DNA from: Escherichia coli
GTDB taxonomy: Bacteria; Pseudomonadota; Gammaproteobacteria; Enterobacterales; Enterobacteriaceae
Assembly: GCF_011045215.1 (NCBI RefSeq)
Contig: NZ_CP049201.1
Direction: 5' to 3' (one strand)
DNA: 64,000 bases
Shown here: in pieces, positions 6,274 to 62,343 of the stretch
Layout: each line of letters opens with the position of its first letter
How positions within the stretch are numbered: position 1 is the first letter of the stretch
The notes under the pieces: model-generated
Databases searched by the model: none
What the model was told of the DNA's origin: nothing
What the model saw: only the letters and a program-made list of their open reading frames with translations
Made by a program: the position numbers and the translations under genes

Positions 6274-7516
<1,243 letters not shown>

Positions 7517-8960: not shown

Positions 8961-9023
8961 TTTGATACTCCCCCCTGACTCCTCCATACTGAAAGTGAAC
9001 TGACAGCCAAATGGAGGAGTCAC

Positions 9024-9671: not shown

Positions 9672-9804
9672 TCCTGACCCGCCGCGGCAGCCTGTATTCG
9701 CGGGTTGCCGCCGTTTTCAGTTTTTTCTGCTGGCGAGTTTATCGCTGGTGACACATGCTGCGTTGTGTCAGGATATTGACGCAGATTTCATGTCGAGGAC
9801 TACC

Positions 9805-10365: not shown

Positions 10366-10370
10366 TGACG

Positions 10371-10396
10371 AGGGCGCATTCGCGCCCTTTATTTTT
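10371..10396 (+). terminator. Rho-independent terminator after yceB
   Basis: AGGGCGC-attc-GCGCCCT stem followed by TTATTTTT. Confidence 0.7.
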
Positions 10397-10401
10397 CGTG
10401 C

Positions 10402-10421
10402 AAAGGAAAACGTTTCCGCTT
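10402..10421. promoter_or_regulatory. PurR operator upstream of pyrC
   Basis: Palindromic GGAAAACGTTTCC core fits the PurR box (ACGCAAACGTTTTC-like). pyrC is a known PurR target. Confidence 0.6.
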
Positions 10422-10431
10422 ATCCTTTGTG

Positions 10432-10458
10432 TCCGGCAAAAACATCCCTTCAGCCGGA
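10432..10458 (+). promoter_or_regulatory. pyrC leader hairpin that can sequester the Shine-Dalgarno
   Basis: TCCGGC ... GCCGGA inverted repeat whose 3' arm overlaps the GGAG just before ATG 10471. This is the known pyrimidine-dependent start-site/translation control. Confidence 0.6.
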
Positions 10459-10470
10459 GCATAGAGATTA

Positions 10471-11517
10471 ATGACTGCACCATCCCAGGTATTAAAGATC
10501 CGCCGCCCAGACGACTGGCACCTTCACCTCCGCGATGGCGACATGTTAAAAACTGTCGTGCCGTATACCAGCGAAATTTATGGACGGGCTATTGTAATGC
10601 CCAATCTGGCTCCGCCCGTGACCACTGTTGAGGCTGCCGTGGCGTATCGCCAGCGTATTCTTGATGCCGTACCTGCCGGGCACGATTTCACCCCATTGAT
10701 GACCTGTTATTTAACAGATTCGCTGGATCCTAATGAGCTGGAGCGCGGATTTAATGAAGGCGTGTTCACCGCTGCAAAACTTTACCCGGCAAACGCAACC
10801 ACTAACTCCAGCCACGGCGTGACGTCAATTGACGCAATCATGCCGGTACTTGAGCGCATGGAAAAAATCGGTATGCCGCTACTGGTGCATGGTGAAGTGA
10901 CACATGCAGATATCGACATTTTTGATCGTGAAGCGCGCTTTATAGAAAGCGTGATGGAACCTCTGCGCCAGCGCCTGACTGCGCTGAAAGTCGTTTTTGA
11001 GCACATCACCACCAAAGATGCTGCCGACTATGTCCGTGACGGAAATGAACGGCTGGCTGCCACCATCACTCCGCAGCATCTGATGTTTAACCGCAACCAT
11101 ATGCTGGTTGGTGGCGTGCGTCCGCACCTGTATTGTTTACCCATCCTCAAACGCAATATTCACCAACAGGCATTGCGTGAACTGGTCGCCAGCGGTTTTA
11201 ATCGAGTATTCCTCGGTACGGATTCTGCGCCACATGCACGTCATCGCAAAGAGAGCAGTTGCGGCTGCGCGGGCTGCTTCAACGCCCCAACCGCGCTGGG
11301 CAGTTACGCTACCGTCTTTGAAGAGATGAATGCTCTGCAGCACTTTGAAGCATTCTGTTCTGTAAACGGCCCGCAGTTCTATGGCTTGCCGGTCAACGAC
11401 ACATTCATCGAACTGGTACGTGAAGAGCAACAGGTTGCTGAAAGCATCGCACTGACTGATGACACCCTGGTGCCATTCCTCGCCGGGGAAACGGTACGCT
11501 GGTCCGTTAAACAATAA
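10471..11517 (+). CDS. pyrC: Dihydroorotase
   Basis: 348 aa, [26 protein letters not shown] with the HxH metal motif. Confidence 0.95.
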
Positions 11518-43778: not shown

Positions 43779-46628
43779 TCAGAAGGTCACATTCAGCGTG
43801 GCCTGACCGTTATAGCCTTCGGCGCTGTTGCCGCTGACACTGTGGGCATAACCGGCCTGAACGCCCAGGGTGATATTTTCCCGGACACGGGCTTCCAGTC
43901 CGGCCTGCAGGTCCAGTGACGTGCCATTCCGGGACGGTGAAAACGTCATGTTACTGCCGGCGGCGGCTGTACCCATGCTCATGTCACCCCGGGAGCTGAA
44001 AGTGCGGATAACAGAAGGCTGTACCCACCAGTTCACCGGCAGTTCACTCACACGGTGTTTTGCACTGTCGCGCAGAGTGTCACGGGATGAGGTGCCTTCG
44101 CCAAAAGTCATATCGTTGTGGCTGCCCAGACGGAAGCCGGCACGCACATGTTGTGCACTGCCATGCCCGAACTTCACATAACCGGCGTTATCCTGGCCGT
44201 CATCCAGGGAGAGCCCCTGCCAGGTGTACTGCAGTTGTGGCTCCAGCATCAGGTTGTCAGTGATACTGAAGGGCAGACCGGTTTCCAGTGAGCCCAGCCA
44301 GCCCCAGCCCCGGGCGCGGAAGTCGTTATTGTCCGATGACGCTTTCATGCTGTGGCGGGTTCCCTGGGCCACAATGTCAGCCCACAGGCCGGAGGACGTG
44401 TGTACCAGATTCAGGTATCCGCCCAGGCTGCCGGCATCATCCCGGACCGTGCCGGCACGGGAGCCGTCATCATCCTTAACATCAACGGAAGAATGGCCAG
44501 CAGCACCATACACTCCTGTCGTCAGTGACATACCGGCAACCTCTGTTCTCAGCAGGTCACCCTCCAGACGGACGAGGCCATAGCTGCCGCTGCTTTCCGG
44601 CGTGGCCCCACGGGCAATACCACCGTTGTTATCGTGCCCGAGATGACCGCCCTGAATGCTGAGACGGACGCTGTTATTTTCACCGCTTACACCGGTCTGA
44701 TGGCTGCGGGAACCTGCCAGAATCCGGTCATAGTCCATTGCCTGTGTCAGCATGGAGGCATACAGGGGGACTTCAGCACGATAAGCATTTTCACTGCGCA
44801 GGTACCAGTCTTCATCGCTGTCACGGTTCAGGGTGTAGTTAAAGGCGCCGGCCTGAAGCGGGCGACTCAGGGCAAACGCACCTTCTTCTGTGGTAGCACC
44901 ATTCTGTGCATCCACAACCCGGATACCCTGTCCGGAGGTTGCCACCCCGAGGTTACTGTTTCCGACATTTGTAAACGCAAGCCAGGTTTTGCCGGTTGCC
45001 TGACCACCATTAATCACCAGCTGGTCAGAGGCATTACTGCCATCAAGGCTGACACGCATATTGATGGTGCCGCCCTGGCCGGTGAGGTTCGTGGTGGTTA
45101 GTTTATGGAACGTTACCGGGGAGTTACTTTTTGCAACAGCACGGCTCAGCGCGGCATCCGGTGTCGTCTGATTATCAAAGTGAATCTCTCCTGCGTTAAT
45201 AATATCGCCGGTACTGACCACATCACCATTCAGTACCATACTGGCGCCTTTACTGAGCTGTGTTCTGCCACTCAGACTTCCCCCGGCAGCCAGCGTCAGT
45301 GTTCCACGATGTCCGACAGTGGTGTTGCTGGCCAGTCCTCCGGCATTAACCGTAAAGCTGCCGCCATTTTCCAGCAGCAGGCCGCTGGCCTGACCGGATA
45401 TGCCATCAATACTGAACTTACCGCTGGCATTGGTCCCCTCAACAGTGGCACCACTGTCTGCAATCAGGGCACCACCGGATGTCATGGTGACATCTGTTGC
45501 CTTACCACCGGCAGACACTGCCAGGGTACCGCCGTCATCCACCAGTGTTTTCCAGGCTGAATGGCCCTCCAGTACATCCAGGCGACCGCCGGACTCCAGA
45601 ACAACGCCGTCAGCCTTACCGTTTTCCACTGTGAAATTCCCCAGGCGGTTTGTGCCGGTGACAGTTGCAGCAGTACTGGTAACCAGTGCACCGCCCGTGT
45701 TCTGGGTGACTGCAGTGGCTTCCCCGCCGGCATGTACCCTCAGTTCACCGTTCTGATTTATGGTGGTGTTACCGGCAGCGCCACCGGCCTTAACAACCTG
45801 CCAGCCCCCCTCGTTAATTACCGTGTTCAGCGCCAGTCCGTCCTTGTGCACATACTGGTAACCGCCATTCAGTGTGGTATTCAGGGCCCTTCCGTGTACC
45901 GACTGGTCACCACCTGCGTAAATGAGAGTGTCACGGGCTATCCCGGAAGATAAGATAATCTGCCGTCCATTTTTGTTGATGGTGGTGGATTCTGCTGTTC
46001 CCTGGACCTTCTGACCCGTGTACGAGTTGTCAGAATCCGGGCCGCCTTCTGCGCCGGTGTTGATGATGGTTCCTGTTGCCAGCCCGCCACTTTTAACGCT
46101 CTGGTAACCGTCGCGGTTGATAATTGTACCGGTGGCAACCCCGCCCTCATGAACCCACTGCTCGCCTCTGTTATTCAGCGTGGTGTTCACCGCCAGCCCG
46201 TTCAGGCTCTGTCCCCCGCCGTCACGAATAACCGTATCACTGGCTGTTCCCCCCTCCAGCACGACCTGACGACCATTTGTGGTGACAGTGGTGTTTCCGG
46301 CTATCCCGCCATTCTGTATCCATTGCCCACCGGTGTTTTCTTCACTGTCCGGCCCCAGTTCCAGCCCGGTACTGATGGTCATTCCGTTGGCCGTACCGAG
46401 GACAATCTGGTTGTCATGATTTGTCAGTGTTCCGCCGCTCATGGTTTCTCCCGCCTGTACAACCGTGTCAGCAGCCAGTGCCGGGACTGACGTGACAGCA
46501 GCAAGAGACAGCGCAACCGCCACACCGGTGCGTTTTCCCCGTGAGCGGGCCAGTTCGGAGGCCACCACCAGGGTGCCCGTAATGTGATTCCATACCAGCC
46601 TGTAGCTGGTGTTCAGATGTCGTTTCAT
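43779..46628 (-). CDS. flu: Antigen 43 / Cah-type self-associating autotransporter adhesin
   Basis: 949 aa from MKRHLNTSYRLVWNHITGTLVVASELARSRGKR (extended signal peptide). It has a repetitive beta-helix passenger and a C-terminal barrel ending ...ATLNVTF. Confidence 0.93.
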   Translation of the reverse strand: MKRHLNTSYRLVWNHITGTLVVASELARSRGKRTGVAVALSLAAVTSVPALAADTVVQAGETMSGGTLTNHDNQIVLGTANGMTISTGLELGPDSEENTGGQWIQNGGIAGNTTVTTNGRQVVLEGGTASDTVIRDGGGQSLNGLAVNTTLNNRGEQWVHEGGVATGTIINRDGYQSVKSGGLATGTIINTGAEGGPDSDNSYTGQKVQGTAESTTINKNGRQIILSSGIARDTLIYAGGDQSVHGRALNTTLNGGYQYVHKDGLALNTVINEGGWQVVKAGGAAGNTTINQNGELRVHAGGEATAVTQNTGGALVTSTAATVTGTNRLGNFTVENGKADGVVLESGGRLDVLEGHSAWKTLVDDGGTLAVSAGGKATDVTMTSGGALIADSGATVEGTNASGKFSIDGISGQASGLLLENGGSFTVNAGGLASNTTVGHRGTLTLAAGGSLSGRTQLSKGASMVLNGDVVSTGDIINAGEIHFDNQTTPDAALSRAVAKSNSPVTFHKLTTTNLTGQGGTINMRVSLDGSNASDQLVINGGQATGKTWLAFTNVGNSNLGVATSGQGIRVVDAQNGATTEEGAFALSRPLQAGAFNYTLNRDSDEDWYLRSENAYRAEVPLYASMLTQAMDYDRILAGSRSHQTGVSGENNSVRLSIQGGHLGHDNNGGIARGATPESSGSYGLVRLEGDLLRTEVAGMSLTTGVYGAAGHSSVDVKDDDGSRAGTVRDDAGSLGGYLNLVHTSSGLWADIVAQGTRHSMKASSDNNDFRARGWGWLGSLETGLPFSITDNLMLEPQLQYTWQGLSLDDGQDNAGYVKFGHGSAQHVRAGFRLGSHNDMTFGEGTSSRDTLRDSAKHRVSELPVNWWVQPSVIRTFSSRGDMSMGTAAAGSNMTFSPSRNGTSLDLQAGLEARVRENITLGVQAGYAHSVSGNSAEGYNGQATLNVTF

Positions 46629-46845
46629 CAGCTTTTCCTTACAGAGGGTGAATAAAAAAGCCGGTACCCACAAATGTGGATACCGGCAGGTACAAAACAG
46701 CATGGTCAGATAAAGTGGTTTTTCCCGGACATAAATGCTTCCCCTCTCTCATCCGCCAGAGAAGTATCAGTCCGTTGTGTGCAATTCCGTTCTGCATGAT
46801 GAAGAGATTCAGCTGCCTTTTCGCAGGCCATTAACCACTACAAAC

Positions 46846-46999: not shown

Positions 47000-47872
47000 T
47001 CAGAAGAAAATCCAGTTCCATACCGCACGGGCAACAGAGACCACCGTGTCACGAACAGCGCGCAGGGCCGTACGGACAACAGAGGCAACACAGACGCTCT
47101 CCGCTGTGTCAAATATCCGGTCCACCGCACCGGTAAACTGTTCACGGGCCTGAGAGCGGACAGATTCCGTGCGCAGCTCGTCCTGCAGTCGGGTCATCAG
47201 GGGACTGGCGGCATGGTCGGGAAGCGCTGTCATGAGCGCACTGACCAGCGTATCCAGTTCCCAGCCGGTGCGGGCCGATACGGCCACAACCGGATGTGCG
47301 GGCCGGAACAGACGGAATACCGCCTCCGTTTTTTCGCGAATGTTCCGTGCCTGTGCGGGAGAGGGCTGAATGCCGGCCATATCCCATTCATGGCAGGGCT
47401 CCGTTTTGTCGGCCTGCGTCACCACAAACAGCACCTGCTGATGTCCCCGGTGCAGGATGTGTCGCCAGAAATACTCATCCACAGACAAGGCACGGTCATC
47501 GGCTTTAATCAGCCACAGTACCAGGTCCAGTTCAGGCAGAATGTCACGGTACAGGGCTTCATACTCTGCATCCCTGTCCCGACTCTCGCCCACCCCGGGC
47601 AGGTCAGTAATAACCATGCTGTGACCGTGGCCACTCAGACGGAAGCGCCGCACTTCCCGGGTGCCGGCGTGAACATCACTGACCGGTGTGACCTCTCCCT
47701 GAAACAGGGCATTACAGAGTGAGGATTTACCGGCCCCGCTTTTCCCCATAATGCCAATCACGGGTTCGTGACTGGTGAGTTTGCGCAGATGTTCCAGGAT
47801 GTGACGGGAAAGTGAGTAAGGCAGGGAGGAGAGCGGTTTTTCAATTGCCTCAATGGCATCAGACGGATTCAT
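47000..47872 (-). CDS. YeeP/YkfA/YfjP-family GTPase
   Basis: 290 aa from the internal Met MNPSDAIEAIEK. Walker A GIMGKSGAGKSS, DLPGVGE and TQADK motifs. Confidence 0.85.
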   Translation of the reverse strand: MNPSDAIEAIEKPLSSLPYSLSRHILEHLRKLTSHEPVIGIMGKSGAGKSSLCNALFQGEVTPVSDVHAGTREVRRFRLSGHGHSMVITDLPGVGESRDRDAEYEALYRDILPELDLVLWLIKADDRALSVDEYFWRHILHRGHQQVLFVVTQADKTEPCHEWDMAGIQPSPAQARNIREKTEAVFRLFRPAHPVVAVSARTGWELDTLVSALMTALPDHAASPLMTRLQDELRTESVRSQAREQFTGAVDRIFDTAESVCVASVVRTALRAVRDTVVSVARAVWNWIFF

Positions 47873-48087
47873 ACATGTATTCCCGGTGAAAAAAGACAAA
47901 ACCCCGCGCACCGGAAAAGTGGCGGGGGACTCACGGAGATAATATCTGCCTAAAATTATTTGGAATGCAGGTATATGCAGCTAATTTGTATCGGCTCATT
48001 AGTACAGAACTAAACCTCATCTGACAGTCCGCTCTGTGCCAAGAGCGGACTTTGCAAAATGGGGGTTATTTCAATCAAAACGTAACG

Positions 48088-49032
48088 TCACAACCAGCCG
48101 ACGCTCTCTCGCCATTTATAATTAGTAACTTTATCATTTTCGCTTATTTTTTTAGATATAGAGCGCGGCTCTCTTCCTAGATACTCAGATATTTCTATCG
48201 GGGACAAATCAAAATCGACAAGCATGACTCTAAGTTTTTCCATTTCCTTTAAAGTCCAAGGCTTGCCATAATTTTCATAAAGAGATACCTTATGCTCCCT
48301 GATAGTTCGCTTTCTCTGAGTTTCACTTTCCCTCTGAAAAATCTCGCTTTTAAATTGTGAACGGAACTCTTTACAGAAGTTGTTATCAGTTTTTTTGTTA
48401 TATAGATTGCTAAAAATAAGCTGGGATGCCGGGTCTAAATCAGGTGTGTTAATAATGAAAACTTTGACCTTTTCCATATAGGGATATTCAATTTTACCCA
48501 ATATGCTTAATTGCTTTATATTAAAAAAACCTCTCAAATCAAAAGATTTAATGAGCTTTGATTGGATTACACTTTCAATCCTGCTTGCATTTGAATAACA
48601 GTACTTTGCCATTGGAAGGGCCCATACTACCAGTTGAGGAATATATTTTTCTAATGCAATGCTCTGCCAATCAGTATCAAAGGTTTGGCTTTTTGCTAGC
48701 ATGTTTTTCGGCAAATCAGAATACATTGTGGTAGATGCCCATATCTTATAATCATTCGCCAAGGCTTGATAGTATTTTGTGTGGTTATGAATTTTATAAG
48801 CTGACATGAAGCGATAAACGTCTTCGTCGTGACCAGCGTCGTAAATTGTTCGATTTCCTCTAAGATAACCGTCGTAATGTTCGGTTATCCTTCTACCTAC
48901 ATTACAACTTACCCCAACGTAAACCACACGACTGAAAAGTCCTTTATGGACAATAAGATAAACTCCGCTACAGCCAGATTTCCTGGCCTCTGATAGAGAA
49001 CCTAAAAATCTCCATTCCATAATTAAATCCAT
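48088..49032 (-). CDS. Orphan GIY-YIG-like nuclease domain protein with a C-terminal Myb/SANT-like HTH
   Basis: 314 aa. N-terminal GVYLIVHKGLFSRVVYVGVSCNVGRRITEHY fits GIY-(10)-YxG...R..EH. Later RIESVIQ/FFN are candidate Glu/Asn. C-terminal KPWTLKEMEKLRVMLVDFDLSPIEISEYLGREPRSISKKI. The gene is markedly AT-rich. Confidence 0.7.
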   Translation of the reverse strand: MDLIMEWRFLGSLSEARKSGCSGVYLIVHKGLFSRVVYVGVSCNVGRRITEHYDGYLRGNRTIYDAGHDEDVYRFMSAYKIHNHTKYYQALANDYKIWASTTMYSDLPKNMLAKSQTFDTDWQSIALEKYIPQLVVWALPMAKYCYSNASRIESVIQSKLIKSFDLRGFFNIKQLSILGKIEYPYMEKVKVFIINTPDLDPASQLIFSNLYNKKTDNNFCKEFRSQFKSEIFQRESETQRKRTIREHKVSLYENYGKPWTLKEMEKLRVMLVDFDLSPIEISEYLGREPRSISKKISENDKVTNYKWRESVGWL

Positions 49033-50024: not shown

Positions 50025-50270
50025 ATGAATATGAATGAAGACGAGATTTATCGCCATATCCGGCAGGCACTTTCCAGTGCGCCTCGTAACCAGTACACCG
50101 TCGAGCTGCACCTGCAAATGATTAAATATGCCGACAAACTGGAACACATTACGGCAAAAGCCTTTTGCGAAGGCACTGGTCTGAACCAGAGCCTCGGTAC
50201 CGAATTCAGCAAAATGCGTAACTTAACCCATCGGTTAAAGGCCGCCGGTCTGAATACCGATCTGCTGTAA
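50025..50270 (+). CDS. Small protein preceding hsdM, possible HTH regulator
   Basis: 81 aa, MNMNEDEIYRHIRQALSSAPRNQYTVELHLQMIKYADKLEHITAKAFCEGTGLNQSLGTEFSKMRNL. The HTH call is a guess from the A-x3-G-like turn. Confidence 0.55.
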   Translation: MNMNEDEIYRHIRQALSSAPRNQYTVELHLQMIKYADKLEHITAKAFCEGTGLNQSLGTEFSKMRNLTHRLKAAGLNTDLL

Positions 50271-50309: not shown

Positions 50310-52748
50310 ATGGCTATCAAAAAAACCGAACTCTATTCTTCCCTGTGGGCAAGCTGCGACGAACTGCGTGGCGGGATGGACGCCAGCCAGTACAAAGACT
50401 ATGTACTGACCCTGCTGTTTATGAAGTACGTTTCCGATAAGTATAAAGGCGATCCTTACGGGATGATCGTGATACCCAAAGGAGCCAGCTTTGACGATAT
50501 GGTTGCGCTGAAAAATGACAAAGAGATCGGCGACAAAATCAACAAAATCATCCACAAGCTGGCGGAAGAGAACGGCCTGAAGGGCGTCATCGACGAAGCC
50601 GACTTTAACGACGAAGATAAGCTCGGCAAAGGCAAGGAAATGATTGACCGCCTGAGCAAGCTTGTCGGTATCTTTGAAGGGTTAAATCTCTCCAGCAACC
50701 GGGCCGAAGGCGACGATCTGCTGGGCGATGCCTATGAATATCTGATGCGTCACTTCGCAACCGAATCCGGTAAGAGTAAAGGGCAGTTTTACACTCCAGC
50801 GGAGGTGTCACGTATTCTGGCGAAGGTGATTGGTATTACTCCCGATACTCCGCAAGATGCAACGGTTTATGACCCAACCTGTGGCTCTGGTTCGCTGCTG
50901 TTGAAAGTGAATGATGAAGCCCGGCGCGGACTGTCGATTTTCGGCCAGGAGATGGATAACGCTACCAGTGCGCTGGCGCGGATGAACATGATTCTGCATA
51001 ACAATGCCACCGCGAAAATCTGGCAGGGCAATACGCTGAGCGATCCGCAGTGGAAAGAGGCGAACGGCAAACTGAAAGCCTTCGATTTTGCCGTGGCGAA
51101 CCCGCCTTTTTCCAATAAAAACTGGACCAACGGGCTGACGCCGAAAAAAGATCCGTTTGAACGCTTCGGCTGGGGTATTCCGCCGGAAAAAAACGGCGAT
51201 TATGCTTTTTTGTTGCATATCATTAAAAGCCTGAAAAGTACCGGCAAAGGCGCGGTGATCCTGCCCCACGGCGTACTGTTTCGCGGTAACGCCGAAGCGA
51301 ATATCCGTGAAAATCTAATCAAGCAGGGCTATATCAAAGGCGTTATTGGTTTGCCAGCCAACCTGTTTTACGGCACCGGCATCCCGGCGTGCATCATTGT
51401 GATTGATAAAGAGCACGCCCACAGCCGCAAAGGCATTTTTATGATCGACGCCAGCCGGGGCTTTATCAAAGATGGCAACAAGAACCGCCTGCGTAGCCGA
51501 GATATTCACCGCATTGTGGACGTGTTCAACCATCAGCGAACGGTACCTGGCTACAGCCGGATGGTGCCCTCCAGCGAGATCGCCGGAAATGATTACAACC
51601 TGAATATTCCTCGCTATATCGAGAGCGGCGAGCCGGAAGATTTACACGATCTGACCGCGCACTTACAGGGCGGTATTCCGGCACGCGATGTGGATGCTTT
51701 GCAAGATTACTGGCGGGTATTCCCTGCCCTGCGCAACGTGCTGTTTGCTGACGACCGTCCCGGTTACTGTCGGGCGCAGGTGAACGCGCAACAGGTGAAA
51801 CCGACCATTCTGGCGCATCAGGAGTTTAAGGATTTTGCCACCCGCAGCCTGCTACCGTTTAAAGCGTGGGTGAAAGAGGCAAGTCTGGAAGAGATTCGCA
51901 AAGGTGATAAACCCAAAGCGCTAATCCACGATATCAGCGAAATGCTATTGGCGCAGTACGCCAACAGTGAGTTGCTGAACAAATACAGCGTGTACCAGAT
52001 CCTGATGGATTACTGGACTGATGTCATGCAAGACGATGTGTATGCGATTATGCAGGATGGCTGGCAAGCCGCCGCGCAAATCCGCGAGCTTCAGCCGGTG
52101 AAAGGCAAAGATGGCAAAAACATCTGGAAAGAAACGCACGATTTCGAGTTTACCAAACGGCGCTACAAGGCCGATGTGCTGCCCCGTTCGCTGGTGGAAA
52201 TTCGCTGTTTCCCGGAACTGCTGGATGCGCTGAACCGCGCGCAGGAGCGCAGTGAAGAAGCCAGTCGTCAGCTAGTGGAATTCATCGAGGAGCAGGCAGG
52301 TGAAGAGGATCTGCTGGCCGAGGCGAAGAACGATAAAGATAAGGTGACGCAAAAGCTGGTGAATGCCCGTCTAGCACAGTTAAAGAAAACCACTGCCGGC
52401 CCAGATGAGCTGGCAGTGCTGAACCGCTGCCTGGCGCTAATTAAGGCCGAAGCCAGTGCGAAAAAAGCGCTGAAAGCCGCACAAGAAGCGCTGGATCGGG
52501 CGGTGTTTAAACATTATCCCACGCTGGATGAAGCAGCGATTAAAACGCTGGTAGTGCAGGATAAGTGGCTGGCAACGTTGCAGGCAGGGATCAAGGCGGA
52601 GATTGAGCGTATTACCCAGCAACTGGCGTCGCGCGTAAAGGAGCTGGAAGAGCGTTATGCTGAACCGTTGCTAGCGCTTGAAGCCTCCGTTGAGGCGTTG
52701 AGCGAGAAAGTGGCCGGGCATTTGCGGGCGATGGGGCTGGAGTGGTGA
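50310..52748 (+). CDS. hsdM: Type I R-M DNA methyltransferase subunit HsdM with a long C-terminal coiled-coil extension
   Basis: 812 aa. AdoMet motif DPTCGSGSLLL and catalytic NPPF (AVANPPFSNKNW). The last ~300 aa are E/K/A/L-rich. Confidence 0.92.
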   Translation: MAIKKTELYSSLWASCDELRGGMDASQYKDYVLTLLFMKYVSDKYKGDPYGMIVIPKGASFDDMVALKNDKEIGDKINKIIHKLAEENGLKGVIDEADFNDEDKLGKGKEMIDRLSKLVGIFEGLNLSSNRAEGDDLLGDAYEYLMRHFATESGKSKGQFYTPAEVSRILAKVIGITPDTPQDATVYDPTCGSGSLLLKVNDEARRGLSIFGQEMDNATSALARMNMILHNNATAKIWQGNTLSDPQWKEANGKLKAFDFAVANPPFSNKNWTNGLTPKKDPFERFGWGIPPEKNGDYAFLLHIIKSLKSTGKGAVILPHGVLFRGNAEANIRENLIKQGYIKGVIGLPANLFYGTGIPACIIVIDKEHAHSRKGIFMIDASRGFIKDGNKNRLRSRDIHRIVDVFNHQRTVPGYSRMVPSSEIAGNDYNLNIPRYIESGEPEDLHDLTAHLQGGIPARDVDALQDYWRVFPALRNVLFADDRPGYCRAQVNAQQVKPTILAHQEFKDFATRSLLPFKAWVKEASLEEIRKGDKPKALIHDISEMLLAQYANSELLNKYSVYQILMDYWTDVMQDDVYAIMQDGWQAAAQIRELQPVKGKDGKNIWKETHDFEFTKRRYKADVLPRSLVEIRCFPELLDALNRAQERSEEASRQLVEFIEEQAGEEDLLAEAKNDKDKVTQKLVNARLAQLKKTTAGPDELAVLNRCLALIKAEASAKKALKAAQEALDRAVFKHYPTLDEAAIKTLVVQDKWLATLQAGIKAEIERITQQLASRVKELEERYAEPLLALEASVEALSEKVAGHLRAMGLEW

Positions 52749-54088
52749 TGGTGGATTTAATGGTGAATGAGCAACGGTCGAGTACGGCGGGGAAAGATGT
52801 GCCTGCGGGGTATAAACTGACTGAGGTGGGCGTGATTCCTGAGGATTGGGATTGCGTACCATTTGGTAATCTGTTTAAAACAAACACAAAGAAAAAAAAA
52901 GTCAGCGATTATGAGCTAGTTTCATTTATTGGGATGCAGGATGTTAGTGAAGATGCACAATTAAAAAATAATACTCAACTTCCTTTTAAAGAAGTTAAAA
53001 GTGGTTTTACTTACTTTGAAAAAGGGGATGTTTTATTAGCTAAAATAACCCCTTGTTTTGAAAATGGAAAAGGATGTCATACCGCTGATTTACCTACTAA
53101 TGTAGGTTTTGGGAGTACGGAATTTCATGTATTAAGGGAAAATGAAGACTCCGATTCTCGCTTCATCTATTTTTGGACAACTGATAAAAAATTCAGAGCA
53201 TCACTGGAATCTGAAATGGTGGGAAGTGCGGGACACCGTCGTGTGCCGCTAGTTGCTATAGAAAAATATTTGATTCCATGTCCCCCAAATTTGCAAGAGC
53301 AAAGTGCTATTGCTGATTCATTATCTGATATTAATAATTTTATTCTAGCTCTAGAAAAGCTTATCGTTAAAAAACAAGCCATTAAAACCGCTACTATGCA
53401 GCAACTACTGACGGGTAAAACCCGTTTGCCACAGTTTGCGTTACGCAAAGATGGCTCTGCTAAGGGATATAAAAAGAGCGAGTTGGGGGCGATTCCTGAA
53501 GATTGGGTAGTCACAAGCATTGGACAATTTACTGACTGCTGTGCTGGTGGAACTCCGAGTACTAAAATTTCAGCATATTGGGGAGGAACTCATCCTTGGA
53601 TGAGTTCCGGCGAATTACACTTAAAACAAGTGTATGCTGTAGCCGATTATATAACCGACGAAGGGCTTGTTAACTCCAGTACAAAGTATGTGCCTAAAAA
53701 TTCTGTATTAGTCGGATTGGCAGGACAAGGAAAGACTCGAGGGACTGTAGCAATTAATCGCATTGAATTATGTACTAATCAGTCTATTGCTGCGATTTTC
53801 CCCAGCAAACATCATTCCACAGAATTCCTGTTCTATAACCTCGACAGTCGTTATGAGGAACTGAGAAGTTTATCTACTGGTGATGGGGGGCGTGGTGGGT
53901 TGAATCTTACTATTATCAGGAAATTACATCTTGCATTTCCGCCAAAAGAAGAACAAGCCGCCATCGCCGCCATCCTCTCCGATATGGACAAGGAAATCCA
54001 GATCCTGCAACAGCGTCTGGACAAAACCCGCCAGCTTAAGCAAGGGATGATGCAGGAACTGTTAACCGGGAAAATCCGCTTAATATAG
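52748..54088 (+). CDS. hsdS: Type I R-M specificity subunit HsdS
   Basis: Two TRDs, each opened by ..IPEDW..., and two conserved helices ending QQLLTGKTRLP / QELLTGKIRL. ATG 52748 overlaps the hsdM TGA. An in-frame GTG at 52742 is an alternative start. Confidence 0.92.
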   Translation: MVDLMVNEQRSSTAGKDVPAGYKLTEVGVIPEDWDCVPFGNLFKTNTKKKKVSDYELVSFIGMQDVSEDAQLKNNTQLPFKEVKSGFTYFEKGDVLLAKITPCFENGKGCHTADLPTNVGFGSTEFHVLRENEDSDSRFIYFWTTDKKFRASLESEMVGSAGHRRVPLVAIEKYLIPCPPNLQEQSAIADSLSDINNFILALEKLIVKKQAIKTATMQQLLTGKTRLPQFALRKDGSAKGYKKSELGAIPEDWVVTSIGQFTDCCAGGTPSTKISAYWGGTHPWMSSGELHLKQVYAVADYITDEGLVNSSTKYVPKNSVLVGLAGQGKTRGTVAINRIELCTNQSIAAIFPSKHHSTEFLFYNLDSRYEELRSLSTGDGGRGGLNLTIIRKLHLAFPPKEEQAAIAAILSDMDKEIQILQQRLDKTRQLKQGMMQELLTGKIRLI

Positions 54089-54100: not shown

Positions 54101-54757
54101 ATGGCTTATGATTACAGCGCCAGCCTCAACCCGCAAAAAGCTCTGATCTGGCGTATCGTCCATCGGGACAATATCCCGTGGATTCTGGATAACGGGCTGC
54201 ACTGCGGCAACAGTCTGGTGCAGGCGGAAAACTGGATCAATATCGGCAACCCGGAGCTGATCGGCAAGCGTGCCGGGCATCCGGTACCTGTCGGAACGGG
54301 CGGGACACTGCATGACTATGTGCCGTTTTATTTTACCCCCTTCTCGCCAATGCTGATGAACATCCACAGCGGGCGCGGCGGCATTAAGCAACGCCCCAAT
54401 GAGGAGATCGTTATTCTGGTCAGCAACTTGCGGAACGTGGCAGCACACGACGTGCCCTTCGTGTTTACCGACAGCCATGCTTACTATAACTGGACCAACT
54501 ACTACACCAGTCTGAATAGTCTGGACCAGATCGACTGGCCCATTTTGCAGGCACGGGACTTTCGCCGCGATCCAGACGATCCGGCTAAATTTGAACGCTA
54601 TCAGGCAGAGGCGCTAATCTGGCAACACTGCCCGATCTCTCTGCTGGATGGGATAATTTGTTACAGCGAAGAGGTCAGGTTACAATTAGAGCAATGGCTG
54701 TTTCAGCGTAATCTAACAATGTCCGTTCACACACGGGCTGGATGGTACTTCTCATGA
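54101..54757 (+). CDS. darT: DarT-like (DUF4433) DNA ADP-ribosyltransferase toxin
   Basis: 218 aa. Motifs [29 protein letters not shown] and YQAEALIW, ending AGWYFS. These closely parallel DarT as I remember it. Confidence 0.85.
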
Positions 54758-55821
54758 TCACATATACACAAGGCAATTTACTGGACGCACCGGTGGAAGC
54801 TCTGGTGAATACGGTTAATACCGTCGGTGTCATGGGGAAAGGCATCGCGTTGATGTTTAAAGAGCGCTTCCCCGAAAATATGAAAGTCTATGCCCTCGCT
54901 TGCAAACAAAAGCAGGTGATCACCGGCAAAATGTTCATTACCGAAACCGGGGAACTGATGGGACCGCGCTGGATTGTTAATTTTCCGACCAAACAGCACT
55001 GGCGCGCTGATTCCCGCATGGAGTGGATTGAAGATGGCTTGCAGGACTTACGCCGCTTTTTGATTGAAGAGAACGTGCAGTCCATCGCCATTCCACCACT
55101 GGGCGCAGGCAACGGTGGTTTGAACTGGCCGGACGTTCGGGCGCAGATTGAATCTGCCCTTGGCGACCTTCAGGACGTTGATATCCTGATTTACCAACCG
55201 ACTGAAAAATACCAGAACGTTGCCAAAAGCACTGGCGTAAAAAAGCTCACTCCCGCCAGAGCCGCCATCGCTGAACTGGTGCGTCGCTACTGGGTATTGG
55301 GGATGGAGTGCAGCCTACTGGAAATCCAGAAACTGGCCTGGCTGTTACAACGCGCCATTGAGCAGCATCAACAGGACGATATCCTCAAACTGCGGTTTGA
55401 AGCTCACTATTATGGCCCCTATGCGCCCAATCTGAACCATCTGCTTAATGCGCTGGACGGCACCTATCTAAAAGCCGAGAAACGCATCCCGGACAGCCAA
55501 CCGCTGGATGTGATCTGGTTTAACGATCAAAAAAAAGAACACGTTAATGCGTATCTGAACAACGAAGCCAGAGAGTGGCTACCTGCGCTGGAGCAGGTCA
55601 GCCAGTTAATTGACGGCTTTGAATCGCCGTTTGGTCTGGAGTTGCTGGCAACCGTAGACTGGTTGCTGAGCCGTGGCGAATGTCAACCAACGCTGGATTC
55701 CGTTAAGGAAGGACTGCACCAGTGGCCTGCGGGCGAACGCTGGGCCAGCCGTAAGTTGAGGCTGTTTGATAATAATAATCTGCAATTTGCCATTAACCGC
55801 GTAATGGAGTTCCATTGCTGA
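54754..55821 (+). CDS. darG: DarG-like macrodomain antitoxin (ADP-ribosyl-DNA glycohydrolase)
   Basis: 355 aa from [40 protein letters not shown] (macrodomain) plus a C-terminal domain. Its ATG overlaps the darT stop as ATGA. Confidence 0.85.
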
Positions 55822-55839: not shown

Positions 55840-58800
55840 TTGAGTACCGTGGGCCAGCGCGAACGCGCCACACAGCAGCGTCTGATTCAGTTTTTTGTTG
55901 AAGATTTAGGATACCGCCATCTGAGTCACCGCACCGGGTACACCGGGAACAGCAACATCGACACTAATATACTGAGCGCGTGGCTAAAACGGCGCGGCGT
56001 TAATGATACGTTGATCACCCGGGCGTTGCGGCAACTGGATTCCGCCGCCGCCCTGGGCGAAGGCAAAAAACTCTATTACGCCAATAAAGAGGTCTATCGC
56101 CTGCTGCGTTACGGCGTGAAAGACAAAGAAGGTGCAGGCGAGCAGAACCAAACCGTGTGGCTGATTGACTGGGCCAACCCACAAGCCAATGATTTCGCCA
56201 TCGCCGATGAGGTGACGGTCAAAGGCGAGTACTGCAAGCGCCCGGATCTGGTGCTGTACGTTAACGGCATTGCGCTGGGCGTGATTGAACTTAAGCGTTC
56301 GTCAGTGCACGTCAGCGAAGGTATCCGGCAGAATCTCGATAATCAAAAGAAAACCTTTATCCGCGATTTCTTCACCACTATGCAGTTAGTGATGGCAGGC
56401 AACGATACGCAGGGCCTGCGCTACGGCACCATCGAAACCCCGGAAAAATACTATCTGGAGTGGAAAGAAGATAATCCAGGCGACTATACACATAAACTCG
56501 ACTTTCATTTAAGTCGTCTGTGTAGCAAATCCAGGCTGTTGGATATCGTCCATAATTACATTGTCTTTGATGTCGGGGTGAAAAAACTCTGCCGCCATAA
56601 TCAGTTCTTCGGCGTCGAGGCGGCTAAGCAACATATTGCCCGTCGTGAAGGCGGTATTATCTGGCACACACAGGGATCGGGTAAAAGCCTGACGATGGTC
56701 TGGCTGGCGAAGTGGATCCGTGAAAATGTGCCAAACTCCCGCGTGTTGATTGTGACTGACCGCACCGAACTGGATGAACAGATCGAAAGCGTGTTTATGG
56801 GCGTGAATGAAGATATTTATCGCACCTCCAGCGGCAACGATCTTATCGCAACGCTCAATCATCCTAACCCGTGGCTTATTTGCTCGCTGGTGCATAAATT
56901 TGGTTGTCGCAGCGAAGCTGAAGACAATGCGGCTACCGACGCCTTTATCACCGAATTACAGCAGTCCCTGACGAAAACATTCCGCGCCAAAGGCGATCTG
57001 TTTGTTTTTGTGGACGAGTGCCACCGCACACAATCCGGCAAGCTGCATAACGCCATGACTGCCATTCTGCCGGACGCCCTGTTTATCGGTTTTACCGGCA
57101 CACCGCTGATGAAGAAAGATAAGAAGAAGTCGGTTGAGGTGTTCGGCCCTTATATCCATACCTATAAATTTGATGAAGCGGTGGCCGACGGTGTGGTGCT
57201 GGATCTGCGCTACGAGGCGCGCGATATTGACCAGTATCTGACATCAGAGAAAAAGGTCGATGACTGGTTTGAAGCCAAGACTCGCGGTTTGTCGAATTTA
57301 GCCAGGACCCAGCTTAAGCAAAAGTGGGGATCAATGCAGAAGCTGCTCTCCAGCAAGTCGCGGCTGGAGCAGATCGTTAACGACATTTTGCTGGATATGG
57401 ATACCCGTCCACGCCTGATGGACGGGCGCGGCAACGCCATGCTGGTATGCAGCAGTATCTATCAAGCCTGCAAGGTTTACGAGATGTTCAGCCAGACCGA
57501 GCTGGCAGGAAAAGTAGCGATTGTGACCAGCTATCGCCCCGATGCCGCCAGCATCAAAGGCGAAGAAACGGGCGAAGGGTTAACGGAGAAACTCTCTAAA
57601 CACGCCACCTATCGTAAAATGTTGGCTGACTATTTTGAACAAAGTGAAGAGAAGGCCGCCGCACGCATTACCGAGTTCGAGCGGGAAGTGAAACAACGTT
57701 TTATTGAAGAGCCGGGGCAAATGCGCCTGCTTATCGTGGTGGACAAGCTGTTGACTGGCTTTGACGCGCCGTCCGCCACCTATCTCTACATTGATAAAAC
57801 CATGACCGACCATACGCTGTTTCAGGCGATTTGTCGGGTGAACCGGCTGGACGGTGAGGATAAAGAGTATGGCTATATTATCGATTATAAAGATCTGTTC
57901 CGTTCGCTGGATAAAGCGATTACCGATTACACCACGGGCGCGTTTGATGATTACGATCGGGACGATGTGGCCGGGTTGCTGAAAGACAGGCTGGAGCAGG
58001 CGCAACTGGATCTCGACAGCGCGCTGGAGATGGTTCGCAGCTTATGTGAGCCCGTCAAAACCCCGCGCAGCCTGCAGGACTATCAGCACTATTTTTGCGG
58101 TAAATCAGGAGAGAATCAGACTTCGTTAAACGAAAAAGAGGCGCTGCGCCTGACATTTTACCAGTGCGTCGCCCGTCTGCTACGCGCTTATGCCAGCATC
58201 GCCAATGAAATGCCGGAAGCAGGCTACACTGCCGAAGAGGTAGAGAGCATTCGCGCCGAAGTCGCTGAATTCGAAAAACTGCGCTATGAGATTAAGCTGA
58301 CCAGCGGCGATCTTCTGGATATGAAGCGCTTTGAACCCGCTATGCGTCATTTACTGGATATGTATGTTCGCGCCGATGGTAGCGAAGTGCTGATGGATTT
58401 TGAAGAGTTAAGTCTGATTGAACTGATTGTCGAGAAAGGCTTGGCGGCGACCGTCGCCCTGCCGGATGATATCCGTAATAATCAGGATGCGATGGCGGAA
58501 ACCATCGAAAACAACGTGCGCAAAACCATCGTGGATGAAAACCCGGTTAACCCAAAATACTATGGACGCATGTCGCAGCTGCTGGATGAACTGATTACCC
58601 TTCGCCGACAAAATGCGCTCAATTATCAGCAGTATCTGGAACGTATCCGCGATTTGTGTAAACAGGTCATCCGCCCGGAGCAAACCGCCGGAGCGTGCTA
58701 CCCTGCCACCATGGATACACAAGCAAAGCGCGCCTTCTATGACAACTTCGGCCACGACGAGGTACTGGCGACCCGCATAGATACGACAATTCGCTATACC

Positions 58801-58935
58801 AAAAGGGCAGAGTGGATTGGCGATCGTTTTAAAGAACGGGAAATTGCCAACGCATTACGTGAAGAGACCGCCAGCTATAATATTGATATTGATGAGGTGA
58901 TAGCGCTTGCCCGTCAGCAGAAGGAATATCACTGA
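55840..58935 (+). CDS. hsdR: Type I R-M restriction/translocase subunit HsdR
   Basis: 1031 aa. PD-(D/E)xK nuclease RPDLVLYVNGIALGVIELK, helicase motif I HTQGSGKSLTM and motif II FVDECHRTQ. TTG start preceded by AAGGAG. Confidence 0.93.
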   Translation: MSTVGQRERATQQRLIQFFVEDLGYRHLSHRTGYTGNSNIDTNILSAWLKRRGVNDTLITRALRQLDSAAALGEGKKLYYANKEVYRLLRYGVKDKEGAGEQNQTVWLIDWANPQANDFAIADEVTVKGEYCKRPDLVLYVNGIALGVIELKRSSVHVSEGIRQNLDNQKKTFIRDFFTTMQLVMAGNDTQGLRYGTIETPEKYYLEWKEDNPGDYTHKLDFHLSRLCSKSRLLDIVHNYIVFDVGVKKLCRHNQFFGVEAAKQHIARREGGIIWHTQGSGKSLTMVWLAKWIRENVPNSRVLIVTDRTELDEQIESVFMGVNEDIYRTSSGNDLIATLNHPNPWLICSLVHKFGCRSEAEDNAATDAFITELQQSLTKTFRAKGDLFVFVDECHRTQSGKLHNAMTAILPDALFIGFTGTPLMKKDKKKSVEVFGPYIHTYKFDEAVADGVVLDLRYEARDIDQYLTSEKKVDDWFEAKTRGLSNLARTQLKQKWGSMQKLLSSKSRLEQIVNDILLDMDTRPRLMDGRGNAMLVCSSIYQACKVYEMFSQTELAGKVAIVTSYRPDAASIKGEETGEGLTEKLSKHATYRKMLADYFEQSEEKAAARITEFEREVKQRFIEEPGQMRLLIVVDKLLTGFDAPSATYLYIDKTMTDHTLFQAICRVNRLDGEDKEYGYIIDYKDLFRSLDKAITDYTTGAFDDYDRDDVAGLLKDRLEQAQLDLDSALEMVRSLCEPVKTPRSLQDYQHYFCGKSGENQTSLNEKEALRLTFYQCVARLLRAYASIANEMPEAGYTAEEVESIRAEVAEFEKLRYEIKLTSGDLLDMKRFEPAMRHLLDMYVRADGSEVLMDFEELSLIELIVEKGLAATVALPDDIRNNQDAMAETIENNVRKTIVDENPVNPKYYGRMSQLLDELITLRRQNALNYQQYLERIRDLCKQVIRPEQTAGACYPATMDTQAKRAFYDNFGHDEVLATRIDTTIRYTKRAEWIGDRFKEREIANALREETASYNIDIDEVIALARQQKEYH

Positions 58936-59651
58936 TGCCAATCATGCAAATAGGCTCGTTACACTTGCTGGTCAACCGTAAGGCGATTAAGAATCTGCAT
59001 ATCAGCGTGCTGCCGCCTGATGGCAAAGTCCGCGTTTCAGCGCCGGAACATATGACGGAGACGGCGATTCGTATGGCGGTTGCTTCACGCTTTCGCTGGA
59101 TCAGAAAACAGCAGCAGGATTTCGCCAGACAGCCTCGTCAATCAGAGAGGGAAATGGTCAGCGGAGAGTGCCACTATCTTTGGGGCCGAAGATATCGCCT
59201 ACTTGTGATTGAGCGTCACGGGCGTCACGAAGTAAAAGTTGCGGGAAATAATAAGCTCCAGCTTTATGTTCAACCGGGAACCCGTGATGAAAATAAGGCA
59301 TTGGCGTTAAGTGAATTTTATCGACATGAACTAAAACAGCAGGTGGCTAAGCTTCTACCTGAATGGCAAGACCGAATCGGTGTTCCCCTAACATTCTGGG
59401 GCATCAAAAAGATGAAAACCTTTTGGGGCACCTGTAACACTACAACAAAACGAATCTGGCTCAATCTGGAGCTAATTAAGAAGCCGCCGGAGTGTCTGGA
59501 GTATATTCTGGTGCATGAACTGGTTCATCTTCTGGAACGTCACCATAATGCTCGCTTCCGGTTGCATATGGATCGGTTTATTCCTGACTGGCGTGAGCGT
59601 CGGGATTTGTTAAATAATATGCCGTTAGCGTTTGAGGCATGGGAGTATTGA
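58935..59651 (+). CDS. M48/DUF45 (YgjP-like) zinc metallopeptidase
   Basis: 238 aa with HEXXH in ILVHELVHLLERHHN. Its ATG overlaps the hsdR TGA (TGATG). Confidence 0.85.
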   Translation: MPIMQIGSLHLLVNRKAIKNLHISVLPPDGKVRVSAPEHMTETAIRMAVASRFRWIRKQQQDFARQPRQSEREMVSGECHYLWGRRYRLLVIERHGRHEVKVAGNNKLQLYVQPGTRDENKALALSEFYRHELKQQVAKLLPEWQDRIGVPLTFWGIKKMKTFWGTCNTTTKRIWLNLELIKKPPECLEYILVHELVHLLERHHNARFRLHMDRFIPDWRERRDLLNNMPLAFEAWEY

Positions 59652-60258: not shown

Positions 60259-60816
60259 TTAAAAGCGATAACCCACGCCAATATTGAATCCATTAATGGA
60301 ATAATTATCGCCAAGTTTTGCTCTGGTTCCTTCATATCCGGCATTAATTGTAATATTACTTGTCGGATTGATCATTACCCCGGCAGCATAAGCAAAAGAT
60401 GTGGATTTTTTCGAAATATTTTCTCTGGCGAAATAACCATCAACGTTTGTCCATGCTGTTTTACCATCAGCTTTAACATGCGCCACGCCGCCAGCCGCAT
60501 ACAGTGACATATAATCGTTAATGCGCCATACGGGGCCGGTCAGTAAGGAATAATATTTTGCATCAACCTGGTTTTTAATTGAATCGCCATATGAATGATA
60601 TTCCTGATTACCATCCCCTTTCATCCAGGAGAAACTGCCCATAATACTGACCGGGGAGTCCCATTCATACCTGTACTGCAGGTTTACCCCTCTAATATTC
60701 TTGAAGTTCTGAATTTTACTCTGTGCATAACCGACAGAAAACGAATGGTTGTCAGCCAGCACGGAACCGCTTGCCACTGATAATATGATGGCTGAAAGAA
60801 CTGACAGTTTTTTCAT
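60259..60816 (-). CDS. Ail/Lom/OmpX/PagC-family 8-stranded outer membrane protein
   Basis: 185 aa, signal peptide MKKLSVLSAIILSVASGSVLA, SVGYAQSK start and ...GFNIGVGYRF C-terminal beta-signal. Confidence 0.85.
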   Translation of the reverse strand: MKKLSVLSAIILSVASGSVLADNHSFSVGYAQSKIQNFKNIRGVNLQYRYEWDSPVSIMGSFSWMKGDGNQEYHSYGDSIKNQVDAKYYSLLTGPVWRINDYMSLYAAGGVAHVKADGKTAWTNVDGYFARENISKKSTSFAYAAGVMINPTSNITINAGYEGTRAKLGDNYSINGFNIGVGYRF

Positions 60817-61081: not shown

Positions 61082-61315
61082 TCAGAACCCCTTAACTTTC
61101 ATGATATGCAACAAACCAATACCCAAGCCTAAGATCCCCCCCCCATACACACTCATTTTTAACAGTCTAGAAAACTGAAAAACTTCAAATGATATTGGGG
61201 CATTCAAATAAAAATACATAAATATCTTCAGAAGAAGATAAAAAATCGAACCGACTATAAACAAACCAAATATGCATACAGTCATTAATAAGACAACAAT
61301 AAGAAGGTTCTTCAT
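61082..61315 (-). CDS. Small polytopic membrane protein, candidate CdiI-type immunity protein
   Basis: 77 aa, almost entirely hydrophobic (2-3 TM helices). Its ATG overlaps the stop of the upstream toxin fragment as ATGA. Confidence 0.65.
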
Positions 61316-62343
61316 TTCCCAGCCTCCATTGCATCTTTCTTTTTCTGGATAATGGAGCTTCCAAACTCAGATGATAAACTACCACCCGCATTACCCACAG
61401 CACCAGGGATCTTACTCGGTACCATTTCTTTAGATAGACCTAACTGCCCTTTAACTTCAGTATATTTTAGTAGAGTCGGATCGAATTTAGGATTCCAGCC
61501 ACCGGTTATCCATTTACCGATTGTATTTGCAGCAGGCTTGACCACATAATTGCCAACCCCATATCCAAACCCGGCCCCCGCTCCATTTGTAATCGCCCCA
61601 GTAAGAGGATCATCTCCGTTTATGGCGTTGGTTAATGCTCCACCTGCCGCATTCCAGGCTATTGTCCCTTTCCAGCCCTGCCCCATGGTGATTACATTGA
61701 CCCATCCTGCAATGATTGCATTTTCAGGATCAACTGAACTATCTACCATGTAACCAATTCCTGCATTTGCACCTGTGCCAAGAGCCCACATGGCCTGAGC
61801 ACCGCCAGGTAAGAGAGCTACACTACCAGTGGCCAACGCTCCGGCATACGCTTTATTGACTGCTTCTCCTCGCTTACAGGCTTCACCGCCTGGGGCATCG
61901 TTACAGGAAAGTACATCTGCGCCATGCGTCTGAGCAGCTTTGCTCTGCTCGGACTCTGTGCCACCAACCAAGTTATTCTCAGCAATGTTCTTCCCAACAC
62001 CAGCCCCTGCAGCCGCGCCAGCCACATCGCCACTGGCAATGCCGCCAGCCATACCCGCTGACAGCGTTGCCAGCGTGCTTATCGTCTGCTTCTGCTCTTC
62101 ACTGAGGTCTGACTGTTTCACGCCCGGATACAGCATTCCGATCGCTCTGGCTGCCAGCTCTCCCGTTGCTGCGCCTGCTGCACCAGCAGCAACATTATTA
62201 CTCTGCATTGCCGCTACTGCACCGCCCAGAATGGCGTGAGCAATGGCCTTTACTGCCGGGTCTTTTTCTGTTGATTTCAGCAGGTATGCCAGTTCCGGAG
62301 CCGAAGCTCCCGCCAGTACTGCACCAACGTCACCACCTGCCAG
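61312..62343 (-). pseudogene. cdiA: Orphan cdiA-CT module: start-less 3' fragment of a CdiA/haemagglutinin-type exoprotein (pretoxin region plus Gly-rich toxin tip)
   Basis: The frame is open from the in-frame TAG at 62344-62346, with no plausible start. It reads ...[79 protein letters not shown]...GKNIAENNL. That is the CdiA pretoxin region ending in a VENN-type (AENN) motif, followed by a ~215-aa glycine-rich C-terminal domain. Confidence 0.75.

Follow-up and report, generated by a model that had tools for sequence, protein, structure and literature searches.

The gene that directly follows hsdR in the stretch of Escherichia coli DNA analysed here (the window, 64,000 nucleotides of contig NZ_CP049201.1, assembly GCF_011045215.1) encodes a zinc metallopeptidase and is effectively the fourth core gene of the type I restriction-modification family to which the window's system belongs. 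For some sixty years, work on type I restriction enzymes has treated them as machines of three subunits. In every sampled member of this family hsdR is followed by a fourth gene, the product of which has an intact protease site. Members lie on chromosomes, on conjugative plasmids and in a prophage, and the genomes that carry them span more than ten phyla. The reading we prefer, tentatively and with a probability of about 0.38, is that the peptidase is a built-in protease that would restrain or remove HsdR.

The peptidase gene (58935..59651, + strand) was delineated as an open reading frame of 238 aa and begins inside the end of hsdR (55840..58935, + strand), which encodes the 1031-aa restriction subunit. 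The hsdR stop codon TGA occupies 58933-58935 and the peptidase ATG occupies 58935-58937, the two meeting in a TGATG (58933..58937, + strand) with one base in common, just as the earlier note had read this junction. A Shine-Dalgarno-like AAGGAA lying within the last hsdR codons (58921..58926, + strand) is the candidate ribosome-binding site for the peptidase, and a promoter scan of the junction revealed no promoter-like site near it. From this layout the peptidase gene is placed in the same transcription unit as hsdR, on the same strand, and would be co-transcribed with it; since its start overlaps the hsdR stop, the peptidase should be made whenever HsdR is made. The translational coupling to the end of hsdR that had been proposed is upheld by this overlap of start and stop. 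The zinc site that had been described as intact is indeed so: HELVH covers aa 194-198 (nt 59514-59528) within the longer motif HELVHLLERHH (59514..59546, + strand), and translation and alignment together give H194, the catalytic E195, H198 and, as the third His, H204, in an HExxHx5H arrangement.

In Pfam the protein matches PF01863 (YgjP-like, the former DUF45) with an E-value of 1.4e-61 and 208.5 bits against a gathering cutoff of 26, and aa 25-228 align to profile positions 5-206 of the 207. A weak match to the SprT-like profile PF10263 (E 1.8e-6) was the only other one in a Pfam scan at E <= 0.001, which returned no match to the Peptidase_M48 profile. NCBIfam, PADLOC and PHROGs contained no model for the peptidase, and a PDB sequence search with it gave marginal matches only. 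The family is large, with 20,196 representative clusters at E <= 0.001. The protein has the zinc site of YgjP-like proteins, comprising HExxH, the catalytic Glu and a downstream third ligand, together with the profile and fold of SprT-like enzymes. In an alignment of 145 sequences E195, M160, W164 and W219 are invariant, H194, H198 and H204 are conserved at 98-99%, and G165 and C167 at 95-97%. Also conserved is MKxRWGSC, the upper-rim strand motif that marks SprT-type peptidases, and 66 of the 67 full-length copies in the HsdR-anchored sample described below keep HExxHx5H intact. The metallopeptidase site is under selection, and judged by its residues the enzyme looks active.

An AlphaFold model from the single sequence (pLDDT 36.5) was superseded by one built with the 145-sequence alignment (pLDDT 93.7). 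This model predicts a catalytic domain of the minigluzincin, Wss1 and SPRTN type joined to a very basic N-terminal domain; the N-terminal ~115 residues are modelled as beta-rich with two helices, and the structure search found no solved structure that matches them. The closest folds to the model are proven peptidases. True M48 enzymes scored 6-7 in this comparison, ArdC 5.7, CapP 5.0 and IrrE 4.8, and the BFVD viral structures gave weak SprT-like catalytic-domain matches only. The median pI is 9.9 for the peptidase and 10.0 for the N-domain, a hint that the protein may bind DNA. The fold belongs with small soluble proteases, a few of which have DNA-bound proteins as their substrates, and the peptidase is most likely a soluble, cytoplasmic zinc metallopeptidase.

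These features bear on the name of the protein. M48 enzymes have a gluzincin site whose third ligand is a Glu on a later helix, and they work in a membrane or periplasmic setting. The MEROPS M48 label (Ste24, HtpX, BepA) that RefSeq attaches to the peptidase was therefore rejected, as the protein has no match to the profile and neither the gluzincin site nor the membrane or periplasmic setting was found. The earlier description as a DUF45/M48-like metallopeptidase survives in its first half, given the PF01863 match, and not as true M48, given the lack of a Peptidase_M48 match and the structural scores above. The accurate label is a YgjP-like / SprT-like metallopeptidase of the minigluzincin type. 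Minigluzincins themselves (selecase MJ1213, proabylysin and projannalysin) share with it a catalytic domain of ~100 residues, HExxH and a His third ligand, but they come from archaea, consist of one domain of about 105-110 aa, become latent through a C-terminal tail of their own or through oligomerisation, and are not linked to restriction genes; the peptidase has the extra basic N-domain of 115 residues. Wss1 and SPRTN, SprT-like proteases that depend on DNA and clear away DNA-protein crosslinks, have the SprT-like profile and fold in common with the peptidase; the latter differs in being bacterial and operon-linked, in having an unrelated N-domain and in carrying no SUMO, ubiquitin or p97 motifs.

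The gene and its position are already known, having been published and named by annotation pipelines. [quoted passage not shown] The published work demonstrates phage protection by the island of seven genes and includes a characterisation of its repressor, RptR; the EPEC island has been cloned in functional form on a plasmid, pBR322-RRDM. For the peptidase the paper gives a name only, and no function, deletion, mutation or discussion of its role (PMC12255303). The literature searched contained no functional study of the peptidase family that adjoins hsdR, so the earlier statement that no role had been assigned agrees with both. Matches on 'DUF45' together with 'type I restriction' were discarded, as those papers concern DUF450. 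COG1451 is reportedly described as adjoining type I systems in Makarova's 2011 paper on defence islands. What we did not find in the literature searched is how strict the linkage is, that it does not depend on DarTG or RptR, that it reaches a second HsdR lineage carried by Klebsiella plasmids, and the corrected family label.

The operon of the window runs rptR (HTH_73)-hsdM-hsdS-darT-darG-hsdR-peptidase, each gene on the + strand. The first gene of the island encodes the RptR-type repressor (50031..50270; HTH_73 profile match; PMC12255303). It is followed by hsdM (50310..52748), for an unusually long methylase subunit of 812 aa with a 360-aa C-terminal extension, and by hsdS (52742..54088), for the specificity subunit, the start of which is uncertain (52742 GTG or about 52748). 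The toxin gene darT (54101..54757) and the antitoxin gene darG (54742..55821; RefSeq start at about 54754) are variable cargo between hsdS and hsdR. The gene upstream of the peptidase is assigned to HsdR by TIGR00348 (E 1e-163). Its product is nearest to the EcoR124I type IC lineage, and distantly so (E 1e-35 over residues 101-696), and its C-terminal 334 aa have no match in Pfam or PDB; the same searches found no match for the 360-residue extension of HsdM. By these comparisons the type I system of the window forms a distinct lineage.

The linkage was measured in two locus samples, each consisting of the best-scoring 80 of larger sets (540 and 596). The HsdR-anchored sample comprises 80 metagenomic loci collected through HsdR alignment, blind to the peptidase, in which HsdR is 48-81% identical; the peptidase-anchored sample comprises 80 genome loci with peptidase relatives 33-59% identical. 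Among the best 80 HsdR-anchored loci the peptidase is the next gene after hsdR in 75/75 that have at least 100 nt remaining downstream, and this figure of 100% covers relatives whose HsdR is about 48% identical or more; in the remaining 5 loci the sequence stops within 38 nt of the hsdR stop. Viewed from the peptidase, 55 of the 78 informative loci, drawn from those 80 plus four fetched earlier, have a close relative of the window HsdR directly upstream on the same strand, against ~0.02 of 78 expected if hsdR were one gene in a few thousand. The peptidase-anchored loci come from Proteobacteria, Cyanobacteria, Chloroflexi, Firmicutes, Actinobacteria, Bacteroidota and Verrucomicrobia, with Planctomycetes, Elusimicrobia, Helicobacter and others besides, more than ten phyla in all. 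The recurrence of such peptidases downstream of type I hsdR genes, put forward in the earlier note, thus lies far above chance in the co-occurrence statistics of both samples. The loci without hsdR mostly fall in a separate grade of the tree, a paralogous branch set among housekeeping genes, where no one neighbour recurs (mutS/amiC, sbcB, a sulfatase, metE and transporters).

The two genes overlap at 58 of 74 HsdR-anchored junctions, by 14 nt in 9 cases, 11 nt in 31, 8 nt in 1, 4 nt in 2 and 1 nt in 15; the non-overlapping junctions have a gap of 0-16 nt in 15/74 and of 41 nt in 1/74. In the class that overlaps by 11 nt the peptidase start codon is formed from the HsdR x-E codons (NAT-GAG), and the purine-rich codons of the HsdR tail double as the ribosome-binding site of the peptidase. 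The end of HsdR, ...(L/I)VKxQxEY, is conserved, with a nearly invariant terminal Tyr, and some of this conservation is due to the embedded start codon and ribosome-binding site. Part of the peptidase family has a C-terminal W-x-Y tail, and 41 of the 145 aligned sequences end in Y. We considered whether this tail and the ...KxQxEY of HsdR form a common docking or degron motif and set the idea aside, as the conservation of the HsdR tail comes largely from overlapping coding and W-x-Y is present in under a third of the homologs.

The pair is also kept when the rest of the operon is rearranged. In one locus (L022) hsdR and the peptidase gene lie ahead of hsdM-hsdS, and in an H. pylori locus (L071) hsdM is divergent while the hsdR-peptidase pair is retained. 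Cargo insertion in the sampled loci is always in the hsdS/hsdR interval and never in the hsdR/peptidase interval. The cargo of this slot is DarTG in the window and in one other locus (L092), a Zeta-toxin-like gene in Methylomonas, AAA_21 + SLFN_AlbA_2 or GmrSD-like genes in V. cholerae, YecA with a cold-shock protein in Klebsiella, and DUF6119 in Mameliella. Release of the toxin by processing of DarG, one of the roles suggested for the peptidase in the earlier note, is not supported as a conserved function: with one E. coli copy of the island set aside, DarTG is found in only 1/165 other loci (L092), as interchangeable cargo, and the peptidase is always there. HTH_73/RptR lies upstream of hsdM in 2 of the 34 loci where a complete hsdM and its upstream sequence are visible, and no other regulator is conserved upstream of hsdM in the same 34. 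RptR is accordingly an unlikely conserved target, present in so few loci while the peptidase is in all of them. Since the cargo varies, DarTG is rare and RptR is seldom present, the conserved partner of the peptidase is HsdR, and not DarG or RptR; nor is it the long HsdM.

This last point comes from plasmids, on which the pairing extends to a second, distant type I lineage beyond the HsdR family of the window. Klebsiella accounts for 347 of the 471 matching plasmid records, and the sampled Klebsiella plasmid copies carry a peptidase homolog that is 30.7% identical. In the one Klebsiella IncF plasmid inspected, this homolog overlaps the end of hsdR by 4 nt, HsdR is 32% identical to that of the window with a C-terminus that cannot be aligned, and HsdM is of normal length (507 aa). 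The same hsdR-peptidase pairing is present on Mameliella and Proteus plasmids. The C-terminal extension of HsdM was rejected as the conserved target, as the Klebsiella-type system pairs the peptidase with a normal HsdM. The pairing does not extend to the type I system of V. cholerae VPI-2, which has the Zorya genes VC1761-64 next to it and not this peptidase (PMC11411939).

The linkage amounts to a functional tie to HsdR, and does not give its direction, that is, whether HsdR is the substrate, the partner or the guardee of the peptidase. Control or clearance of HsdR fits best with the linkage seen from both genes, the retention of the pair through rearrangement, its presence in a second lineage and the conserved catalytic residues. 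The peptidase would bind HsdR and/or DNA and would cut HsdR when it is in an unwanted state, whether unassembled, stuck on DNA after cutting, or translocating along host DNA that lacks the modification, be it upon arrival in a new host or following DNA damage. HsdR is the dangerous subunit, needing restraint in an unmodified host or when damage yields unmodified sites, and a mobile system found in many phyla could gain from a protease of its own made in step with HsdR. Such a system would thereby acquire its own host-independent restriction alleviation or turnover, as ClpXP provides for EcoKI-type enzymes, and by analogy with Wss1 and SPRTN the peptidase would become active on DNA and there remove stalled or dead-end HsdR. 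In the EcoR124I type IC lineage, the nearest to this HsdR, restriction alleviation is not known to depend on ClpXP. For EcoKI, alleviation by ClpXP-dependent degradation of HsdR is cited as established in PMC12255303, and we propose it as the functional analogue, in which HsdR proteolysis protects unmodified host DNA; ClpXP, however, is a host AAA+ serine protease that is not encoded with the restriction system, whereas the peptidase gene is encoded with hsdR. If control of HsdR is the true role, two things would be accounted for, namely that these mobile systems can settle in a new host and leave it alive, and that they manage without ClpXP; the peptidase would then be a bacterial protease of the Wss1/SPRTN type that clears a DNA-bound motor.

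Some points weigh against control of HsdR. A protease made in step with HsdR needs a regulatory switch, and none is visible in the sequence. The mirror-tree correlation of distance matrices, moreover, does not favour HsdR over HsdM (r 0.78 vs 0.76). Nor is the fold dedicated to restriction enzymes, given that the paralogous branch sits in housekeeping contexts without hsdR. A metalloprotease domain with a tie to type I systems is known from ArdC of plasmid R388, which has a SPRTN-like domain and counters HsdRMS; its protease activity is dispensable for this, and so it is a weak precedent.

A rather unlikely alternative is that the peptidase is a maturation or assembly factor, which trims HsdR or another subunit once, or is itself a stoichiometric subunit, and is needed for restriction. 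Coupled translation is characteristic of subunits that belong to a single complex, and this reading would also suit the presence of the peptidase in 100% of the sampled family and a family-specific HsdR C-terminus of 334 aa with a near-invariant terminal Tyr. The Klebsiella-type HsdR argues the other way, having an unalignable C-terminus and yet the same peptidase partner, and the 507-aa HsdM of that system indicates that the HsdM extension is dispensable; the conservation of the HsdR tail is in part that of the embedded start codon and ribosome-binding site.

The strict tie to hsdR could also reflect a guard or second-line effector, in which HsdR keeps the peptidase latent and a phage anti-restriction protein frees it to cut a host or phage target, a reading we regard as unlikely. 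The Lit zinc protease, which cleaves EF-Tu, is a precedent for an effector of the guard type. A likeness of the same kind is PrrC with EcoprrI, PrrC being activated by Stp as cited in an embedded-defence preprint, and type I loci of the window's family act as platforms for second-line defences (the cargo here; PMC11411939). In rare oral-metagenome loci, furthermore, one polypeptide combines the peptidase with an ImmA/IrrE-type sensor protease and an HTH domain, and the fusion lies directly after hsdR with a 1-nt overlap; this is a hint of a link to sensing or regulation, and it keeps the ideas of a guard and of a regulator alive. Against a guard, the peptidase has no known toxin-like behaviour, its close paralogs sit in housekeeping contexts, the sequence points to no target, and the island cloned in E. 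coli grew like the control in infected cultures at an MOI of 1 (PMC12255303). The more specific form, with a latent effector made one-for-one with HsdR, held inactive, released when a phage protein disables or strips the complex and then cleaving a host or phage protein to stop infection, is in our estimate decidedly unlikely; if true, it would make the whole of a very widespread type I family a two-layer sense-and-respond system, with the peptidase as the protease counterpart of PrrC.

Counter-counter-defence, in which the peptidase degrades anti-restriction proteins of phages or plasmids (the DNA mimics Ocr and ArdA, for instance) before they block the type I enzyme, would likewise account for the type I linkage and the intact protease site, and a protein this basic could have as much affinity for acidic DNA mimics as for DNA. 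The RRDM island also partially protects against T7, which encodes Ocr (PMC12255303), although DarTG could account for that partial protection. DNA mimics bind the methylase core and not HsdR, while the gene follows hsdR and not hsdMS, and we consider this role improbable.

It is quite improbable that the enzyme is not a protease at all but a metal-dependent hydrolase of small molecules or nucleotides, tuning, for example, the nucleotide pools for the ATP-driven motor. E. coli K-12 YgjP, the namesake of PF01863, is reportedly listed in UniProt as a weak UTP pyrophosphatase and is otherwise labelled a 'putative metal-dependent hydrolase'. YgjP shares the Pfam family and the HExxH...H site with the peptidase, but it is only 167 aa long, is 29% identical over 100 aa, has no N-domain and adjoins rlmG in a housekeeping setting. 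By these measures YgjP is not an ortholog of the peptidase, and because it is short, distant and without the N-domain, its annotations do not transfer. The proven peptidases among the closest folds and the conserved SprT-type MKxRWGSC motif also argue against a hydrolase of this sort. A regulator protease that cleaves RptR or another repressor and so switches the island on, in the way that CapP cleaves CapH and ImmA cleaves ImmR, merits very little credence given the scarcity of HTH_73/RptR (2/34 loci) beside a peptidase found in all, and the lack of any other regulator conserved there.

Of 5,426 complete E. coli genomes, 248 carry the peptidase DNA at 99-100% identity, under the RefSeq name 'M48 family metallopeptidase', and hsdR was found in 262 genomes. 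The two genes share identity bands of at least 95%, with 245 records at >=99% and 4 at 95-99%. The gene family is present in EPEC as well as in the clinically common IncF plasmids of Klebsiella. It is nearly absent from phages, with 4 of 50,697 records, the best of which contains the entire four-gene unit.

The gap between hsdS and hsdR (54101-55821 in the window) is a slot for cargo whose contents differ from locus to locus. Comparison of its gene content with that of the corresponding gaps in the retrieved loci L002-L006, L092, L172 and L174 revealed DarTG, a Zeta-toxin-like gene with 23S_rRNA_IVP, AAA_21 with SLFN_AlbA_2, GmrSD-like genes, YecA with a cold-shock-domain protein, and DUF6119. 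The junction between hsdR and the peptidase gene held no cargo in any locus seen. L171 (IMGVR 15682261, human feces), 64 kb long and deposited as the complete genome of a phage, contains the entire hsdM-hsdS-hsdR-peptidase unit near one end (16-7735), with all four genes annotated as encoding hypothetical proteins.

In three human oral metagenome loci (L168-L170) the gene following hsdR (8001-10565) encodes an 854-aa protein in which the YgjP-like peptidase is fused to a Peptidase_M78 domain of the ImmA/IrrE type as well as a Cro/C1 HTH; the start of this gene lies 1 nt within the hsdR stop. Next come genes for DUF4357, two helicases (one DEAD, one NERD/UvrD-like) and an ADP-ribosylglycohydrolase.

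The C-terminal third of HsdR (334 aa, 57931-58932) matched nothing in Pfam or the PDB. It finishes in a conserved ...VKxQxEY end, of which the final Tyr is near-invariant; this conservation arises in part because the peptidase gene's ribosome-binding site and start codon overlap the same stretch. HsdM from the window is 812 aa long, and its final ~360 residues (codons ~451-812, 51660-52745) likewise gave zero matches to Pfam or to any solved HsdM structure. The long form is kept across this type I family (~800-890 aa), whereas HsdM of the distant, plasmid-borne Klebsiella-type system is only 507 aa and lacks it.

YgjP-like homologues also occur without hsdR. Eight loci (L036, L076, L044, L062, L065, L068, L039 and L080) belong to a paralogous branch set in housekeeping surroundings, namely mutS-amiC, sbcB, sulfatase, aminotransferase, metE, glycosidase and transporter genes, and no neighbour is shared among the eight. 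On two plasmids, from Picosynechococcus (L173) and Deinococcus (L175), the incomplete gene tables list no adjoining hsdR, and a pseudogenised copy may therefore lie beside the peptidase homologue. Both plasmids have genes for a UvrD-type helicase and a CoiA-family protein in its vicinity.

The island is flanked downstream, on the (-) strand, by a gene for an Ail/Lom-type outer-membrane protein (60259-60816) and by an ORF (61312-62208) that encodes a PT-VENN pre-toxin domain and is a fragment of a CdiA-type contact-dependent inhibition system. The upstream side, also on the (-) strand, carries genes for an AIDA-type autotransporter adhesin (43779-46703) and a small GTPase-like protein (MMR_HSR1/dynamin-like, 47000-47911), together with a 314-aa ORF (48088-49032) for which Pfam gives no match. 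In the E. coli relative L001, the side corresponding to the downstream flank contains a cdiA with a frameshift, along with a cdiB-like gene.
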